From Acidimicrobiia bacterium (GTDB taxonomy: Bacteria > Actinomycetota > Acidimicrobiia > Spongiisociales > JAHEDJ01), in the NCBI GenBank assembly GCA_029210695.1, contig JARGFH010000017.1, positions 1 to 63,231 of the forward strand: DNA of 63,231 nt. Reading direction: 5' to 3'. The notes beneath the pieces were generated by a model. That model saw only the letters and a list, made by a program, of their open reading frames with translations, did not search any database and had not been told where the DNA came from. Both the position numbers and the translations under genes were made by a program. Shown piece after piece: positions 1,299-59,880 of this stretch. Numbering within the stretch: the first letter of the stretch is position 1; every line of letters starts with the position of its first letter.

Positions 1299-1372
1299 TG
1301 GAGGTGAGGGGATTTGAACCCCTGACTTCTTCCGTGCGAGGGAAGCGCTCTGCCGGGCTGAGCTACACCCCC
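1299..1372 (-). tRNA. tRNA-Ala(CGC)
   Basis: GGGGGTGTAGCTCAG...CTTCC-CTCGCAC-GGAAG...GGTTCAAATCC...CACCTCCA. Anticodon CGC, G3:U70 alanine identity pair, CCA not fully encoded. Confidence 0.97.
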
Positions 1373-7324: not shown

Positions 7325-7831
7325 GCGTTCTCCCCCCACGCAGTGGGGGGAGTGCCCCGAAGGGGCGAGGGGGCCGAACTCAGAACCAGCCAGTCGCCCC
7401 CTCTGCCTCGCAGACTCGGCATCTCCCCCGCTCACGCAGGGGAGAAACGCAACAACACGGTCGTGTTCTATCGAACGACGCTTCTCCCCCAAGCGGCAAC
7501 GAGGAAAACCAAGGCAGCGCGCGTTCTCCCCCCACGAAGTGTGTTGGTTTGCGCGACAGGCCCCGCCGTCTCAGCGGCGGTCATCCCACTACCGCGTGCT
7601 CTCCCGCTTGCGGGGAAGCTGTCCGGCGAAGCCGGACTGAGGGGGTGTCCTGCAGGTCCGGTCCCGGTCCGACAGGTGTTCGGCCATGCCCCCTCCGCCC
7701 TGCTGCATCGGCAGCAGGCCACCTCCCCCAGCTGACGCTGGTGGAGGACGTTTCTGAGTGGCCACGTGTCGACTCAGACCGCGACAAGACACCACGCAGT
7801 GGGGGGAGTGCCCCAAAGGGGCAAGGGGGGC
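7325..7831. repeat. Cluster of REP-like bipartite palindromes (family 2)
   Basis: Units of CTCCCCC-stem-GGGGGAG, a short hairpin and GAGGGGG at about 7330, 7396 (reversed), 7599, 7690 (reversed) and 7792, plus partial copies. Confidence 0.75.
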
Positions 7832-7909
7832 AAAACCCAAAACCTACAACCCAGAACCTCAAAAAGCCATCCCCCTTCCAATCGTCCGCCGGGCGCGGTA
7901 CGTTCGTCC

Positions 7910-15442: not shown

Positions 15443-15466
15443 CAAGCCACCGTCGCCCAACCCTGC

Positions 15467-15516
15467 GTTTTCGCGCGGGGTTCACCCCATATACGGTGCG
15501 ATTCCCGCGCGAAAAC
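15467..15516. repeat. 50-bp palindrome, family 1 copy A
   Basis: GTTTTCGCGCGGG-N24-CCCGCGCGAAAAC, between convergent genes. Confidence 0.92.
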
Positions 15517-16815: not shown

Positions 16816-16926
16816 CTAGTGGTCTGTCTGCTATTTGATGACCGGGGTAGGCAGTGCCACGAACCCTGCCACAGCGGGGATCGTCCGGCAGGAGACCAAG
16901 TCACCAAATCCGCGACGGACCACTAG
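16816..16926 (+). mobile_element. MITE copy 1 (IS630-like, CTAG-bounded)
   Basis: 111 bp with imperfect 23-bp terminal inverted repeats; exact reverse complement of 59365-59475. Confidence 0.85.
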
Positions 16927-19024: not shown

Positions 19025-21691
19025 ATGTCAGATCCGTTCAATGCCCGCTCGACGCTGTCGACGGCGCTCGGCGACCGGACCATCTACCGCCTCGACGCGC
19101 TGAAGTCGATCGGCGACGTCGACGCCCTGCCCTATGCCATCAAGGTCCTCCTCGAAGCCGCGCTGCGGAATTTCGACGGCCACATCGTGACGGATGAGGA
19201 CATCCGCGCAATAGCGTCATACGACGCCACCAAAGTCGGTGAGACCGAGATTGCGTTCTCGCCGGGCCGCGTCGTCCTCCAGGACTTCACCGGTGTTCCG
19301 GCCGTCGTCGACCTTGCCGCCATGCGCTCGGCGGTCGTCAAGATGACGGGTGACGAGTCTGCCGCCCAGAAGGTGAATCCACTCGTGCCGTGCGATCTCG
19401 TGATCGACCACTCCGTGCAAGTCGACGCCTTCAACTCCGGCATGGCGCTCCAGATCAACGCCGACAAAGAGTTCGGACGCAACCGCGAGCGCTACGAGTT
19501 TCTGAAGTGGGGCCAGTCGGCCTTCGACAACTTCCGGGTCGTTCCGCCGGCCACCGGCATCGTCCATCAGGTCAACCTCGAGTACCTCGCCAAGGTCGTC
19601 TGGGACAACGGTGCCGACCTCTATCCGGACAGCCTCGTCGGAACAGACAGCCACACAACAATGATCAACGGCCTCGGCGTTGTCGGCTGGGGAGTGGGCG
19701 GCATCGAGGCAGAAGCGGTCATGGTCGGACAACCGATCTACATGCTGTTGCCTGAAGTGGTCGGATTCAAACTCACCGGCAAACTCGCTGAGGGGGCCAC
19801 CGCTACCGACCTGGTGCTCAAGGTCACACAGATGCTGCGCGGCCACGGCGTCGTCGGCAAGTTCGTCGAGTTCTACGGACCGGGCCTCGCAGGTATGCCT
19901 CTCGCCAACCGGGCGACCATCGCCAACATGGCTCCGGAGTACGGAGCGACCATGGGGTTCTTCCCCGTCGACGAGCAGACCATTCGATACCTGCGGTTGA
20001 CCGGTCGGGACGAAGCTCTCGTCGCCACGGTTGAGCAGTACTACCGCGAGCAGGGGCTGTGGCGTGAGGACGATCGGGAGATCGTCTACTCCTCCCACCT
20101 CGAGCTCGACATGGGGACGATAGAACCGGCGCTGGCCGGCCCGAAGCGTCCGCAGGATCGCATCGTTCTTTCAAACATGAAGGCTCAGTGGCATACCGAT
20201 CTCGACGCCACGTTCGGCAAGGCAGGTGACGCCGCAGCGGTGGATGTCGAATCCGAGCAGCAGAGATTCGAGATGCACCACGGCGATGTGGTTGTGGCGG
20301 CGATCACGTCGTGCACCAACACATCGAATCCGGATGTGATGGTCGGCGCGGGATTGGTCGCCAGGAAGGCCAGGGCGAAGGGCCTGACACGCAAGCCGTG
20401 GGTCAAGACCTCACTGGCGCCCGGATCGACGGTCGTGACGGAGTACCTGACGCAGTCGGGCCTGCTGGAGGACCTCGAAGCAACCGGTTTCTACACGGTG
20501 GGGTATGGGTGCACAACGTGTATCGGCAACTCCGGACCTCTCCCCGAGGAGATCACGGCCGGCATCAACGAGGGCGATCTGGTGGCCGCCTCGGTGTTGT
20601 CGGGCAACCGCAACTTCGAGGGGCGCATAAACCCGGACGTACGGGCGAACTATCTCGCCTCACCACCGTTGGTCGTCGCCTACGCACTAGCCGGAACCGT
20701 CGACATCGATCTGACTACGGAACCCATCGGGCAGGATCATGCCGGCAGCGACGTGTACCTCCGCGATCTCTGGCCGTCGCAAGCTGAAGTCGACGAGATC
20801 GTGGCGGCCAACGTCACCGAGAAGCAATTCCGGACCCAGTATGCGGATGTGTTTCGCGGGCCGGAAGCCTGGCGGGCAATCGAAACCTCGGGTGGCGCCC
20901 TGTACTCATGGGATGCCGCGTCCACCTATGTGCAGGAGCCACCATTCTTCGACGACCTGACGACCGACACGGGCACGATCGTGCCAATTTCCGGAGCGAG
21001 GGTGTTGGCCAAACTCGGCGACTCGGTCACCACCGACCACATCAGTCCGGCCGGATCTATCGCCCCCGACTCACCTGCCGGCCGTTATCTGACGGCGAAC
21101 GGTGTGGCTCCGGCGATGTTCAATTCGTATGGCTCGCGGCGCGGCAACGACCAGGTGATGACCAGGGGCACGTTCGCCAATATCCGGGTTCGCAACCAGT
21201 TGGCGCCGGGAACAGAAGGTGGGTGGACAACCGACTTCACCGACGGTGAGGTCAAGAGCATCTACGACGCCAGCCTCAACTACAAGGCGGCCGGCACTCC
21301 GCTGGTGGTCCTCGGCGGCATCGACTACGGCATGGGATCATCGCGCGACTGGGCCGCCAAGGGGACCTTCCTCCTCGGCGTGAAGGCCGTGATCGCCCGG
21401 TCCTTCGAGCGGATCCACCGATCCAACCTGATCGGCATGGGTGTGCTTCCGCTCGAGTTCCCCGAAGGTACCGACGCCGACGCGCTGGGGCTCGACGGAA
21501 CGGAGACGTTCGACATAACCGTCGACGACTCGATCCAGCCGCGCCAGGGCGTGGTCGTAAAGGCGACCAAGGCCGACGGCACCGTGATCGAGTTCACCGC
21601 CACCTGCCGGATCGACACGCCGGTCGAGGTCGACTATTACCGCAACGGAGGCATCCTCCACACGGTCCTGAAACAGATGGCCTTGAGCTAG
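19025..21691 (+). CDS. acnA: Aconitate hydratase A
   Basis: [34 protein letters not shown] and TTDHISP motifs. Confidence 0.98.
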
Positions 21692-21705
21692 TCCCCCAAA
21701 ACGCC

Positions 21706-21755
21706 GTTTTCGCGCGGGGTTTCCACCCTATGTGGGGTGAATCCCGCGCGAAAAC
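21706..21755. repeat. 50-bp palindrome, family 1 copy B
   Basis: Same 13-bp arms and 24-nt spacer; contains the stop codon of the DUF559 gene. Confidence 0.92.
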
Positions 21756-22690: not shown

Positions 22691-22737
22691 ACCCTGACCT
22701 ATCCGGACTCGAGAATCTAGAGGGTTGATCTCCCCCT

Positions 22738-22787
22738 GTTTTCGCGCGGGAATCCCACCGCATAAGGTGCTATTCCCGCGCGAAAAC
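22738..22787. repeat. 50-bp palindrome, family 1 copy C
   Basis: Same arms and spacer length; lies between divergent genes. Confidence 0.92.
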
Positions 22788-26151: not shown

Positions 26152-26742
26152 ATGGTCTGGTTGGCCCTCGTCCTATTCCTCGCGGCGACCATCGCGGTCA
26201 TTCGTGGTGGCAAACTGCGCAACCTGTCCGACATTCGATTGCGCTTGTGGTGGCTGCTGATACTGGGCTTCGGACTCCAGTCGATCACAGGTTTCTTCCC
26301 ACAAGACGCCACCTGGGCAAGGCCCACCGGCATCACGCTGATCCTGGTTTCATACGTCCCGTTGCTCATCATGGTGATCCTCAACAGGGATAGGCCCGGA
26401 ATGTGGTTGGCAGGACTCGGGATCCTCATGAACTTCTCAGTGATCGCGGCCAACGGCGGTATGCCGGTACTCGAAGGAGCCGCCATCGTGGCAGGCGGGT
26501 TTCCCGAGTCGGTGGACCTAACCAGCAACTACAAACACCTCGTCCTCGACGAAGGCACACGTCTGGCGTTCCTCGCCGACGTCATCCCATTGCGGTTCAT
26601 CGGCCAGGGTCAGGTCATCTCACTCGGTGATGTGTTGCTGGCCGTGGGCCTCGGCCGGTTCCTGGAGCACGAGCTGCGCCGCCCTGTGCGCTGGTTCAAA
26701 CACGGAGCGCAGGCGGAGGCCGGCTCGGCGCGTCGCGTCTAA
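26152..26742 (+). CDS. DUF5317-family membrane protein
   Basis: N..PG..L.GLG.L.N..VI.ANGGMPV, TRL.FLADVIP and VISLGDVL motifs; family recognised from memory. Confidence 0.8.
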   Translation: MVWLALVLFLAATIAVIRGGKLRNLSDIRLRLWWLLILGFGLQSITGFFPQDATWARPTGITLILVSYVPLLIMVILNRDRPGMWLAGLGILMNFSVIAANGGMPVLEGAAIVAGGFPESVDLTSNYKHLVLDEGTRLAFLADVIPLRFIGQGQVISLGDVLLAVGLGRFLEHELRRPVRWFKHGAQAEAGSARRV

Positions 26743-26755
26743 CACCCCCAACCTC

Positions 26756-26805
26756 GTTTTCGCGCGGGATTCGCTCCATATACGGTGGAATCGCCGCGCG
26801 AAAAC
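26756..26805. repeat. 50-bp palindrome, family 1 copy D
   Basis: Same arms with one mismatch, extended by a perfect 10-bp CCCCAACCTC/GAGGTTGGGG pair. Confidence 0.92.
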
Positions 26806-26815
26806 GAGGTTGGGG

Positions 26816-28048
26816 TTACAGGTTGGCGTCGGCGATTTCGCGGAGGGCTTCCACGACGTCGGGGTCGTAGTCATAAGCGGCACCCCGGTGCAATACCTCG
26901 AGCGCCTCGAGGTGGGAAAACCCGAGTTCCGTCGTCGCGTGGTCGTAGGCGCTGGTGGCCTTGATCACTTTGGACGCCATCGGTAACTCGAGGTCCTTGA
27001 ACTCGCCGGGGCGCCGGTAGGGATGATGCTGCTGGCGAACCAGGTGAGCGATGCGATCGAGGTAGGGCGACTCGGCGATGATCTCGGCGCCCCACCTGGC
27101 GATGTCCTCGTCGGTGAAACCCATCTTGATCACATTCGGCTCATTCAGCGTCACCCGACCGATGTCGTGCATCATTGCCGCGAACCTGATGTCCTCTACC
27201 TCGTCCGGCGAAAGGCCGAGTCGCTGCCCGACCTCCACCGCCATGGCCGACGTCCGATCGCCGTGACCGTCCGGTGACAAACCGGCGACCTCCGGGATCC
27301 GCGAGAGCGCACGGATCGTCTGCCAGTAGGTGGTCCTCGCATCCTGATACCGATGAAATGCCAGATGAGCGAACGCATACGGCACGGCTACCACGATCAC
27401 CGCAGCCCACAGGTCGATCCTGGCGTAGGCGAATCCGAACAAGGCTCCCGTCGCCAGCAGACTCAACGCCACCATCCAGTCCTTGACGGCCAGCAGCCAG
27501 AGGTAGCGGCGGCTGATGCGCCGCCGGCCGAACGTCACGAACGCCCACAAGAACATCTCGAGCATGAACCAGGTCGCCGATCCGAGCGTGAAGCCGATCA
27601 AGTCGGCGGCGTCCGAGTCGAGACCCCAGCCGCCCAGCGTCGGGGCCACATATCGGAGAACCGTCGCGTAGACGCCGGCGCCGACTGCCCTGCGCAATGC
27701 GATGGCCAAGGAAATCACCGCTTCTTCGCCACGCAGAACGGCGATCGCCCACGAAACAAGCGCTCCTCCCACGAAGACGGCGCCGCTGGCGACCAGATCG
27801 ATGGCGCCGCCAGGTGTCCGCATCACGAGCGGAACGGCCGCCGCCACTGCAAACCCAAGAGATAGCCGGTTGCCACTAGTCGCCGGAACCATGATTTGCG
27901 ACGCGCCGGCCAGTGCAGCGACGCCCACGAGGATCTCCGCCAGTTCACCGCGAACTTCAATCAGCAAGAGAGCGAAGAGGGCGGCGGCAGCCAACGCCCA
28001 CATCACGTCCATCAGCCGTGAACGCGGCGCCGGCTCAGTTCTGCCCAC
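26816..28048 (-). CDS. Membrane protein with degenerate HD-GYP domain
   Basis: Multi-TM N-terminus, GH..R and MHDIG present; no GYP loop and TSAYD instead of ADAFD. GTG start with GGAGG RBS. Confidence 0.85.
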   Translation of the reverse strand: MGRTEPAPRSRLMDVMWALAAAALFALLLIEVRGELAEILVGVAALAGASQIMVPATSGNRLSLGFAVAAAVPLVMRTPGGAIDLVASGAVFVGGALVSWAIAVLRGEEAVISLAIALRRAVGAGVYATVLRYVAPTLGGWGLDSDAADLIGFTLGSATWFMLEMFLWAFVTFGRRRISRRYLWLLAVKDWMVALSLLATGALFGFAYARIDLWAAVIVVAVPYAFAHLAFHRYQDARTTYWQTIRALSRIPEVAGLSPDGHGDRTSAMAVEVGQRLGLSPDEVEDIRFAAMMHDIGRVTLNEPNVIKMGFTDEDIARWGAEIIAESPYLDRIAHLVRQQHHPYRRPGEFKDLELPMASKVIKATSAYDHATTELGFSHLEALEVLHRGAAYDYDPDVVEALREIADANL

Positions 28049-29414: not shown

Positions 29415-29504
29415 TCAGCCAACCTTGAATGATGCAGCACCGGCGACGATTAACGCCGACAAGCTGCTTGCAATCGCAATGAAACGGGCCACTTTGGCCT
29501 TCAT
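29415..29504 (-). CDS. Unannotated 29-aa signal-peptide-like small protein MKAKVARFIAIASSLSALIVAGAASFKVG
   Basis: ATG with AGGTGA RBS upstream. Basic n-region, hydrophobic core, short polar/aromatic tail. Ends 36 nt before the HD-GYP start on the same strand. Confidence 0.75.
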   Translation of the reverse strand: MKAKVARFIAIASSLSALIVAGAASFKVG

Positions 29505-29815: not shown

Positions 29816-30433
29816 ATGCGCTATCAGGAACTCGAAGAGACCCTCTGCCGTCTTCCGACCGTTGATGCCGCCAGAGTGGTCGGGACCAATGGAACCATCA
29901 GCGAGATCCACATCCTGGGCACCCCCGGGAAGGCTCCCAAGCAGGTAGTGCGCGATGTCCAGTCCCTGGCAATGGCCCAATTCGGGCTGACCGTCGACCG
30001 CCGGGTCATCTCGGTGGTGCAGATCGAGAACGAGGAGATTGGCCGGAGCGACAGGCCGGCGATCGTCGACATCCTGGAGGAACCGGTCGGATCCCGGCTG
30101 ACGGTGACCGTCACGCTGGCCTGGCAGAACGAGATGATCACCGGGGTAGCGAGTGGCCCCAGTGCCGCGACAACTCGCCTCCGCTCAGTTGGCGAAGCAA
30201 CGGTGGCCGCCCTCGAACACGGCATCGGGGATGACACGGCACTGGCGCTTGCCGCCCTAGAAACGCCGACGATTGGATCCCGCCAGGTGGCCGTTGCACA
30301 GATCGTGATCGTGTCCGGCGGCGAGGAACGGCTCGTCGTCGGATCCGCCCTGGTCGGCCCGAACGAGGCACAGGCCGCAGTGCGCGCCGTTCTCGATGCC
30401 GTCAACCGGCTCGTGCCGGGCTTCAGGCGTTAG
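29816..30433 (+). CDS. Conserved hypothetical protein
   Basis: EIHIL....PKQVVRDVQS......VDRRVISVVQ motif; C-terminal A.VRAVLDAVNR resembles a LeuA-regulatory-like domain. Confidence 0.75.
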   Translation: MRYQELEETLCRLPTVDAARVVGTNGTISEIHILGTPGKAPKQVVRDVQSLAMAQFGLTVDRRVISVVQIENEEIGRSDRPAIVDILEEPVGSRLTVTVTLAWQNEMITGVASGPSAATTRLRSVGEATVAALEHGIGDDTALALAALETPTIGSRQVAVAQIVIVSGGEERLVVGSALVGPNEAQAAVRAVLDAVNRLVPGFRR

Positions 30434-59364: not shown

Positions 59365-59475
59365 CTAGTGGTCCGTCGCGGATTTGGTGACTTGGTCTCC
59401 TGCCGGACGATCCCCGCTGTGGCAGGGTTCGTGGCACTGCCTACCCCGGTCATCAAATAGCAGACAGACCACTAG
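59365..59475 (-). mobile_element. MITE copy 2
   Basis: Exact reverse complement of 16816-16926; abuts the IS right end. Confidence 0.85.
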
Positions 59476-59485
59476 GTACTAGTTG

Positions 59486-59751
59486 GCGTTTCTCCCTCGC
59501 GCAGCGGGGGAGATGCCGAGTCTTCGAGGCAGAGGGGGAGATGCCGAGTCTTCGAGGCAGAGGGGGCACCCAACCAGGGACAAACCGACCCAAGACGAAC
59601 GCCGACCCTCCCGCCTCGCCGGCCAGCAACAGCCGGCCGCCACTCCCCCCACGAAACCGTGAGGGGAGAACCCGCCCACAACACACCGCACAAACTCGCG
59701 TTTCTCCCCCGCGCAGCGGGGGAGATGCCGAGCCTTCGAGGCAGAGGGGGC
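59486..59751. repeat. REP-like cluster (family 2) with a 28-bp tandem duplication
   Basis: Units at 59486 and 59698 resemble the reverse complement of 7396-7450; 59506-59533 equals 59534-59561. Confidence 0.8.
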
Positions 59752-59880
59752 ACCGAAGGCAAGGGCCGTTTCTGCGAGTCGGGTAGGATCTAAGCGAAAG
59801 AGCAGCGAGCCGGAGTATCTCCGATCGAGGACGGACCTCGCAGTTCACGCCGACCTCTGTGCGCTCGAGGCCCATGCGAC

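Follow-up and report, generated by a model that had tools for sequence, protein, structure and literature searches.

The window analysed here, a stretch of 63,231 nucleotides from an Acidimicrobiia bacterium (contig JARGFH010000017.1), encodes a small membrane protein of the DUF5317 family and raises the question of whether this protein is a peptidase resembling signal peptidase II (LspA) and, if so, which substrate it cuts. The preliminary description of the locus had named it a DUF5317 protein and had proposed a membrane aspartyl peptidase. The family assignment was confirmed by Pfam (E 1.5e-31, 109.9 bits against a cut-off of 25, positions 2–149 of the 151-position profile); no other Pfam family was found in the protein up to E 1, and the NCBIfam search gave no match. 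The gene is present in one copy in the genome, and the nearest relatives of its product carry the Acidimicrobiia label. A feature search of the ESM Atlas returned DUF5317 clusters only and opened no route to LspA. Among the genomes sampled, 112 of the 301 from Actinomycetota and 72 of the 201 from Bacillota carry DUF5317; Thermus and Thermotoga yielded matches to both DUF5317 and MASE9, and a plasmid collection gave two weak records. A scan for sigma-70 promoters and terminators gave chance-level signals. The features of the locus are listed in Table 1.

Table 1. Features of the DUF5317 locus, with one SpoIIM-like gene from another genome as an example
Feature	Coordinates	Strand	Remarks
DUF5317 (PF17248) membrane protein, 196 aa	26152..26742	+	ATG start; candidate aspartyl peptidase
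Five predicted membrane helices and outward-facing insertion	DUF5317 protein		Predicted model
G90-x3-N94 in predicted membrane helix 84–101	26419..26433	+	Both residues 131/131
D143 in FLADVIP, candidate first catalytic Asp	26578..26580	+	Start of strand 143–149
S157-x-G159-D160-x5-G166, candidate second catalytic Asp motif	26620..26649	+	LspA: N-x-A-D-x5-G
Palindromic dispersed repeat, 22-bp perfect arms	26746..26815	.	Between converging genes
Second membrane sensor, degenerate HD-GYP	26816..28012	-	Start codon inferred
MASE9-like + HD-GYP protein, 447 aa	28035..29378	-	Predicted c-di-GMP phosphodiesterase
29-aa signal-peptide-like ORF, candidate substrate	29415..29504	-	2.7 kb from DUF5317 gene
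Conserved leader: AGCGRAGCGR, then hairpin with UAGCG loop	29534..29573	-	30–70 nt upstream of peptide start
Divergent 205-aa soluble protein	29816..30433	+	Often accompanies module
SpoIIM-like gene, example	L207:2424-2948	minus	After MASE9-HD-GYP gene

Conservation was assessed in two sets of homologues, the first comprising the window protein and representatives of 50% clusters, 160–240 aa long, taken from 150 listed (131 sequences), and the second 140 homologues drawn from genomes of Actinomycetota and Bacillota, the latter phylum contributing 20. The Gly and Asn noticed earlier in a membrane helix are G90 and N94, invariant in the first set together with N101 (131/131 each), and would correspond to Gly102 and Asn106 of LspA in Staphylococcus aureus numbering. 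The two Asp residues reported from FLADVIP and ISLGDVL, 17 residues apart, are D143 and D160 (codon at 26629). Both are conserved in the first set (127/130 and 127/129) and among the genomic homologues (D143 in 137/140, with one Glu and two gaps; D160 in 138/140, with two gaps), and they are the sole near-invariant acidic residues of DUF5317. The residues around D160 are retained to a similar degree (S157 127/129, G159 128/129, G166 125/129 in the first set). Other pointers to LspA in the preliminary description fared less well. The distance between the two Asp residues proved non-diagnostic, being 13–22 in the 140 DUF5317 homologues and 14–19 in LspA (14 in 21 of 22 actinobacterial sequences, 18 in the S. 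aureus enzyme according to PMC6952399 and 19 in a solved LspA sequence), and this argument was dropped, as the spacing varies in both families. The Asp of the LspA pattern GN..D is missing from DUF5317, which has V97/I98 at the positions matching Asp109-Arg110. The latter belong to the 14 conserved residues of LspA, as do Asp21/Lys25 and Asn52/Gly54 (PMC6952399); no conserved D..K or N-x-G is found in the N-terminal half of DUF5317. S157-x-G159 stands where LspA has Asn133-x-Ala135, and N101, M104-P105 and H129 (the last in 121/140) are invariant residues of DUF5317 that are absent from LspA.

The AlphaFold2 model of the protein is confident (pLDDT 91.8) and features helices 2–17, 34–48, 56–77, 84–101 and 158–175, a hairpin formed by strands 143–149 and 152–157, and an outer insertion of 36 residues between helix 84–101 and the hairpin. 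In the predicted fold D143 opens the beta-hairpin and D160 belongs to the initial turn of the helix that follows, which is the layout of LspA; the hairpin geometry would bring the two residues close together. The density of K/R is 0.22–0.24 per residue in segments 18–33, 78–83 and 172–185 and 0.04–0.08 in segments 49–56 and 102–157. Because of this charge bias, D143 and D160 are placed at the outer face of the membrane, where the catalytic dyad of LspA is located (PMC6952399).

The model was compared with 48,161 chains using an exhaustive structure aligner, whose own significance bar is Z 8. With the whole model, the LspA structures 6RYP and 5DIR ranked fourth and fifth at Z 5.5, below this bar (rmsd 4.0 and 3.0 over 94 and 92 residues, respectively). 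With the core 33–178, also below the bar, 5DIR was second (Z 6.2, rmsd 2.9, 92 residues aligned) and 6RYP third (Z 6.0, rmsd 2.4, 86 residues), and in both searches their sequence identities were the highest or joint-highest among the 50 matches listed. Judged by where the core alignments end, and provided that the last helix is gapless, D160 coincides with residue 136 of 6RYP and with residue 143 of 5DIR; Asp136 is catalytic in S. aureus LspA (PMC6952399). Values of Z 5.5–6.2 are shared with unrelated bundles, a designed helical barrel ties with or beats LspA in both searches, and scores under 8 may reflect nothing beyond a common helix arrangement. Weight is given to these sub-threshold matches because LspA had been named before the search.

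Sequence-level and rapid structural comparisons did not bear out the relationship. Foldseek returned nothing at E ≤ 0.001 with either the whole or the core model, and LspA was absent among the matches listed, a blank which is no evidence for a different fold. HHalign of 143 DUF5317 against 22 LspA sequences gave a probability of 3% in a wrong register, the PDB sequence search with DUF5317 up to E 10 found no LspA, and PF01252 was absent among the best 25 of 68 Pfam families for the 143 members. When segments were slid along the LspA profile, those of D143 and D160 both chose the catalytic motifs as their best register, with scores lower than the best null (6.2 vs. 11.8 and 9.0 vs. 13.4), and the G90/N94 segment did not settle in the register expected of it. 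Assignment of DUF5317 to LspA or family A8 was rejected, the sequence comparisons being negative and several LspA-defining residues absent; the true LspA of this genome is encoded on another contig. The proposal of a membrane aspartyl peptidase was upheld in one part only: an LspA-like function is plausible, and neither of the conditions that the preliminary description held would speak against it, poorly conserved or separated Asp residues and an unrelated predicted fold, arose, but membership of LspA is unsupported by sequence. An LspA-like catalytic core in DUF5317 is probable, and on balance we are inclined to think that the protein works like LspA.

A candidate substrate is encoded directly upstream of two membrane HD-GYP genes, by an ORF whose 29 codons are short enough to evade annotation; the preliminary description had overlooked this probable substrate as well as the neighbouring sensor genes. 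The deduced peptide has a basic start, a hydrophobic core, a small-residue motif ending at an invariant Ala24 and a 5-residue tail. With the peptide profile, 60 such ORFs turned up in DUF5317 loci, and the 30 control loci around LspA, which were shorter (100 kb in all), had none. Among the ORF and 31 relatives of equal length, third-position differences numbered 542, against 390 and 230 at the other positions, and a ribosome-binding-like site precedes 81 of 106 peptide ORFs. Judging by these sequence features, the ORF is a real gene. Of 98 distinct peptides (eight SpoIIM-type peptides, whose hmmalign register was shifted, were left out of the counts), 97 carry K/R within the first eight residues and 95 the anchor Ala, at which a small-x-small motif ends in the same number. 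The tail is 4–5 residues long in 89, K/R stands three residues past the anchor in 83, and 79 distinct tails were counted, with K/R in 92 peptides, D/E in three and Cys within the last nine residues in two. An L/V/I-A-G lipobox-like stretch two residues before the anchor is found in 66 peptides. The peptide looks like a precursor with two possible cut registers, after the anchor Ala or two residues earlier. LspA cuts a lipobox before a diacylglyceryl-Cys and is sensitive to globomycin; such a reaction is unlikely for DUF5317, as 96 of the 98 presumed substrates lack the Cys. At one locus (L067:5249-5887), four peptide genes of two alternating types lie directly upstream of DUF5317.

In Actinomycetota, genome searches located the peptide in 77 of 112 DUF5317-positive and 6 of 189 negative genomes, the latter figure rising to at least 16 after MASE9 loci were added. 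The proportion in positives was 71/106 without six profile-seeding genomes and 75/108 without four genomes flagged as unpublished, and 35 of the 112 had no peptide match. In Bacillota, the peptide was found in 59 of 72 positive (48/61 without seeds) and 5 of 129 negative genomes; 53 of 66 matches lie within 4 kb of DUF5317, mostly in an operon in the order peptide, MASE9-HD-GYP, DUF5317. Kin genomes are not independent in these counts, and P values were given no weight; a quickly built tree was poorly resolved, and no claim is based on it. Among the ORFs following a peptide, 29 of the 49 picked were scanned, and 24 of them had a MASE9 match at E ≤ 0.001 combined with an HD-GYP or histidine-kinase output; the remainder comprised two HD-GYP and two GGDEF-EAL proteins lacking a MASE9 match and one mis-picked gene. 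Since the outputs behind MASE9 vary, the peptide goes with the sensor domain and not with one output. MASE9 occurs in 119 of the 301 Actinomycetota genomes, and 13 of 19 MASE9 loci from DUF5317-negative genomes carry a peptide, four of them of the ordinary type (L211, L212, L214 and L215, in drafts 93–99% complete with no DUF5317 detected). The peptide tracks MASE9 more tightly than it tracks DUF5317, which counts against an obligatory role of DUF5317. In locus L171 (G117:C5), the peptide gene lies between two MASE9-type histidine kinase genes, the second apparently split into two ORFs, and DUF5317 converges on them.

In the window, the two HD-GYP genes converge on the DUF5317 gene. The product of the gene nearer the peptide retains HDVGK, HHSQFDGNGYG and DAFDAM, with intact metal motifs and GYP reading GYG. 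It matches HD_5 at E 1.6e-33 and MASE9 at 18.4 bits, below the cut-off of 24.3; a profile of 20 homologous sensors matches it at E 4.7e-14. The second protein keeps HD, and the HDxGK, GYP and DxxDAM patterns are unmatched in it. A third MASE9-like sensor of the source genome, also sub-threshold, is combined with GAF-GGDEF-EAL (L222:915-3494, minus strand, G000 contig C5). The genome contains one peptide gene and none was detected beside this sensor, which could respond to the same peptide.

The leader motif upstream of the peptide gene occurs in 60 of 102 leaders and in 40 of 4000 background windows; the second motif is unpaired inside a stem in 29 of 34. The leader is conserved in Actinomycetota and Bacillota, and the full pattern is present three times in the source genome. 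Rfam gave no credible match at the leader and one tRNA in the whole window (1299–1372, minus strand). The element has the look of a target for some RNA-binding regulator, and the 205-aa protein, which has tblastn matches in 79 of 160 loci, including 15 of 20 from Bacillota, and LeuA_dimer as its sole, sub-threshold domain match, is a candidate binder. The palindromic repeat next to the DUF5317 gene is not specific to the module. It belongs to a REP-like family of palindromic intergenic repeats of about 55–65 nt, which has four copies in the window (15452–15516, 21691–21755, 22723–22787 and 26741–26805) and 22 pattern matches in the genome. A perfect 111-nt inverted duplicate (16816–16926 and 59365–59475, 42 kb apart) may represent a mobile repeat or stem from the assembly, and GC-rich short repeat families are common to 7336–7432, 7792–7834 and 59465–59757.

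From the conservation, the predicted fold and the gene linkage we infer, with belief tipping slightly in favour, that DUF5317 is a dedicated aspartyl peptidase which releases a 5–7-residue tail sensed by MASE9. As its scaffold the enzyme would use the helical core of LspA together with the catalytic hairpin. The precursor of 29 aa would insert in the membrane so that its basic N-terminus faces inward, and its helix may dock against the helices of DUF5317. D143 and D160, at the outer face, would activate water and cut within the small-residue motif. A cut after V20-A21-G22, in the lipobox-like register, would give a 7-residue product, and an alternative cut after the invariant A24 a 5-residue product; in neither case would a cysteine lipid be necessary. 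The short cationic tail with aromatic and aliphatic residues, or else the shortened membrane stub, would alter the activity of the adjacent MASE9 sensors. As gene order suggests, the active/degenerate HD-GYP pair would here lower c-di-GMP, and elsewhere histidine kinases or GGDEF-EAL proteins would take this place.

Docking was modelled on a cognate pair from locus L058, comprising a DUF5317 protein 37% identical to that of the window and a 30-aa peptide, and not on the window's own pair. The predicted complex scored 0.60, against 0.00 for the best control. The mark for such predictions was reached by 116 of 157 solved and 2 of 215 mismatched pairs, of which 18 solved and both mismatched pairs stood at 0.60 or below; the runs agree in at least 97% of contacts, with a partner pLDDT of at least 74. 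The prediction gives weak support to binding of the peptide by DUF5317, and not to its cutting. Regulators of the MgrB kind, single-helix micro-proteins, act uncut in the membrane on their sensor, and DUF5317 might similarly be a non-cutting membrane co-receptor or chaperone, keeping the uncleaved micro-protein at the MASE9 sensor while its aspartates bind the K/R tail. We regard this main rival as unlikely, although several observations suit it. The complex prediction speaks to binding at most, and the cationic tails described above, with their near absence of D/E, match a pair of conserved acidic residues. Helices also pack against each other through small-residue motifs. Galperin and Chou argue for ligand binding by MASE9 inside the membrane (bioRxiv 10.1101/2021.11.05.467447), and peptides occur without detectable DUF5317. 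However, a non-cutting partner leaves unexplained why N94, S157, D143, D160, G159 and G166 are retained in LspA order on a scaffold resembling that of LspA, and why an invariant Ala keeps a fixed spacing to the C-terminus ahead of a variable tail. A peptidase remains the preferred reading.

In one family, whose genomes have DUF5317 in 0/22 and MASE9 in 14/22 cases (one protein is labelled Candidatus Humimicrobiaceae), the operon slot of DUF5317 is filled by a SpoIIM-like membrane protein in all ten loci examined (L201–L210). Its invariant residues are N70, H108, E123, R127 and E166. A peptide with a changed motif accompanies it in nine of the ten loci, in two to three tandem copies at L202, L203 and L207, and the AGCG leader motif was found with 0/8 of these peptides. 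The SpoIIM label comes from the ESM Atlas as a lead (score 0.93, TM 0.70); Pfam gave no match, and no solved relative was found. The protein was ruled out as a remote DUF5317 (HHalign 0.1%), and a diverged DUF5317 was absent from five genomes of this family (93–98% complete; best E 0.23) and from 20 loci. We infer that the position occupied by DUF5317 or the SpoIIM-like protein is a replaceable peptide-processing slot.

The same substitution bears on a second alternative, in which the Asp pair is catalytic in another reaction or on another target, namely transpeptidation, acylation or cyclisation of the peptide, its clearing after some other enzyme has cut it, or cutting of the MASE9 protein itself. 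The SpoIIM (DUF95) family is linked to clusters for head-to-tail cyclisation (PMC8659200), the extra invariants N101, M104-P105 and H129 and the 36-residue insertion suggest altered chemistry, and DUF5317 also exists fused to MFS transporters. We consider this alternative improbable, as the peptides have neither a conserved Cys nor any other acceptor, and no gene for a modifying enzyme recurs beside them among the 30 proteins scanned. The fusions were seen in five proteins (L159:5920-7719, P0247 and P0285–P0287), hinting at processing coupled to transport. That the likeness to LspA is mere chance on a helix bundle, with signal peptidase I, which reads small-x-small motifs, cutting the peptide and DUF5317 acting in transport or assembly, would suit the negative sequence and Foldseek comparisons, the small-x-small motif in 95/98 peptides and the 35/112 positive genomes without a peptide match, but is very improbable given both LspA representatives in the top five and then the top three of 48,161 chains with a catalytic Asp in register, and the tight linkage of peptide and DUF5317 in two phyla.

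With dedicated peptide release by DUF5317 as the favoured reading, the wider proposal, put forward tentatively and with rather more doubt than belief, is that DUF5317 forms a second LspA-type family with no need for a lipid-bearing Cys, which would release 4–7-residue cationic ligands of MASE9 in an undescribed quorum-type system of Actinomycetota and Bacillota, acting straight on kinases or c-di-GMP enzymes, with a SpoIIM-like alternative cutter. The literature search, with most subscription papers outside its scope, retrieved no paper on DUF5317 or PF17248 and nothing relevant linking an LspA-like peptidase, a peptide signal, c-di-GMP/HD-GYP or SpoIIM, a single paper on PilA being judged unrelated; the available parts of PMC8689077 and PMC12462473 added nothing on the family. 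LspA, an antibiotic target, stands structurally isolated among enzymes. If the proposal is true, a relative cutting non-lipidated peptides would enlarge its family and reveal the active-site parts responsible for the chemistry, a function would be assigned to a domain found in 112/301 Actinomycetota and 72/201 Bacillota genomes, and MASE9 would gain a concrete, synthesisable ligand. The SpoIIM swap, in turn, bears on what cuts the leaders of circular bacteriocins.

Compared with LspA (PF01252, Peptidase_A8; 5DIR, 6RYO, 6RYP, 9EMZ), DUF5317 shares an outward-facing Asp pair, of which one member lies on a hairpin strand and the other where the last helix begins, together with G-x3-N in the helix before and D-x5-G, and 86–94 residues superpose at 2.4–4.0 Å; the partner peptides likewise have a signal-peptide-like helix, with L/V/I-A-G in 66/98. 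The two differ in having five and four helices, respectively, and in the absence of detectable sequence-level homology. The match begins at LspA residue 56–59, leaving the N-terminal beta-cradle part unmatched; the gap corresponding to N94–D143 is 40–56 residues in DUF5317 and 12–19 in LspA; and DUF5317 lacks DR after the Asn, its presumed substrate lacking a lipidated Cys.

The sensors resemble Thermotoga maritima TM1467 and Streptomyces venezuelae HdgA/HdgB in joining a membrane sensor to HD-GYP, and hdgA-hdgB are likewise a tandem active and degenerate pair (PMC6205966). Al-Bassam et al. suggested that the activating signals of HdgA/HdgB were missing under their conditions (PMC6205966). The available text of the two MASE9-HD-GYP accounts (bioRxiv 10.1101/2021.11.05.467447 and PMC6205966) names no ligand, micro-gene or processing enzyme; the word "peptide" has no occurrence in either main text, and the string "DUF53" none in the former. 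Clusters for head-to-tail cyclised bacteriocins share SpoIIM with the DUF5317 slot of one family. There SpoIIM is a core gene, the leader-cutting enzyme is described as unidentified, and no peptidase activity of SpoIIM is shown in the available text (PMC8659200).

The overall arrangement is closest in outline to Gram-positive peptide signalling. In agrB/agrD a dedicated membrane peptidase processes AgrD, which forms a ring through Cys or Ser, and Phr are short exported peptides. The module shares with these systems a tiny precursor gene, a co-encoded membrane processing protein, a membrane or cytoplasmic receptor and a variable mature peptide. It differs from agr in that no AgrB Pfam match is found here and no thiolactone Cys is conserved (Cys in 2/98 peptides), in the proposed aspartyl chemistry, as opposed to the cysteine of AgrB, and in its presumed receptor, a MASE9 domain whose output is a c-di-GMP enzyme or a kinase.
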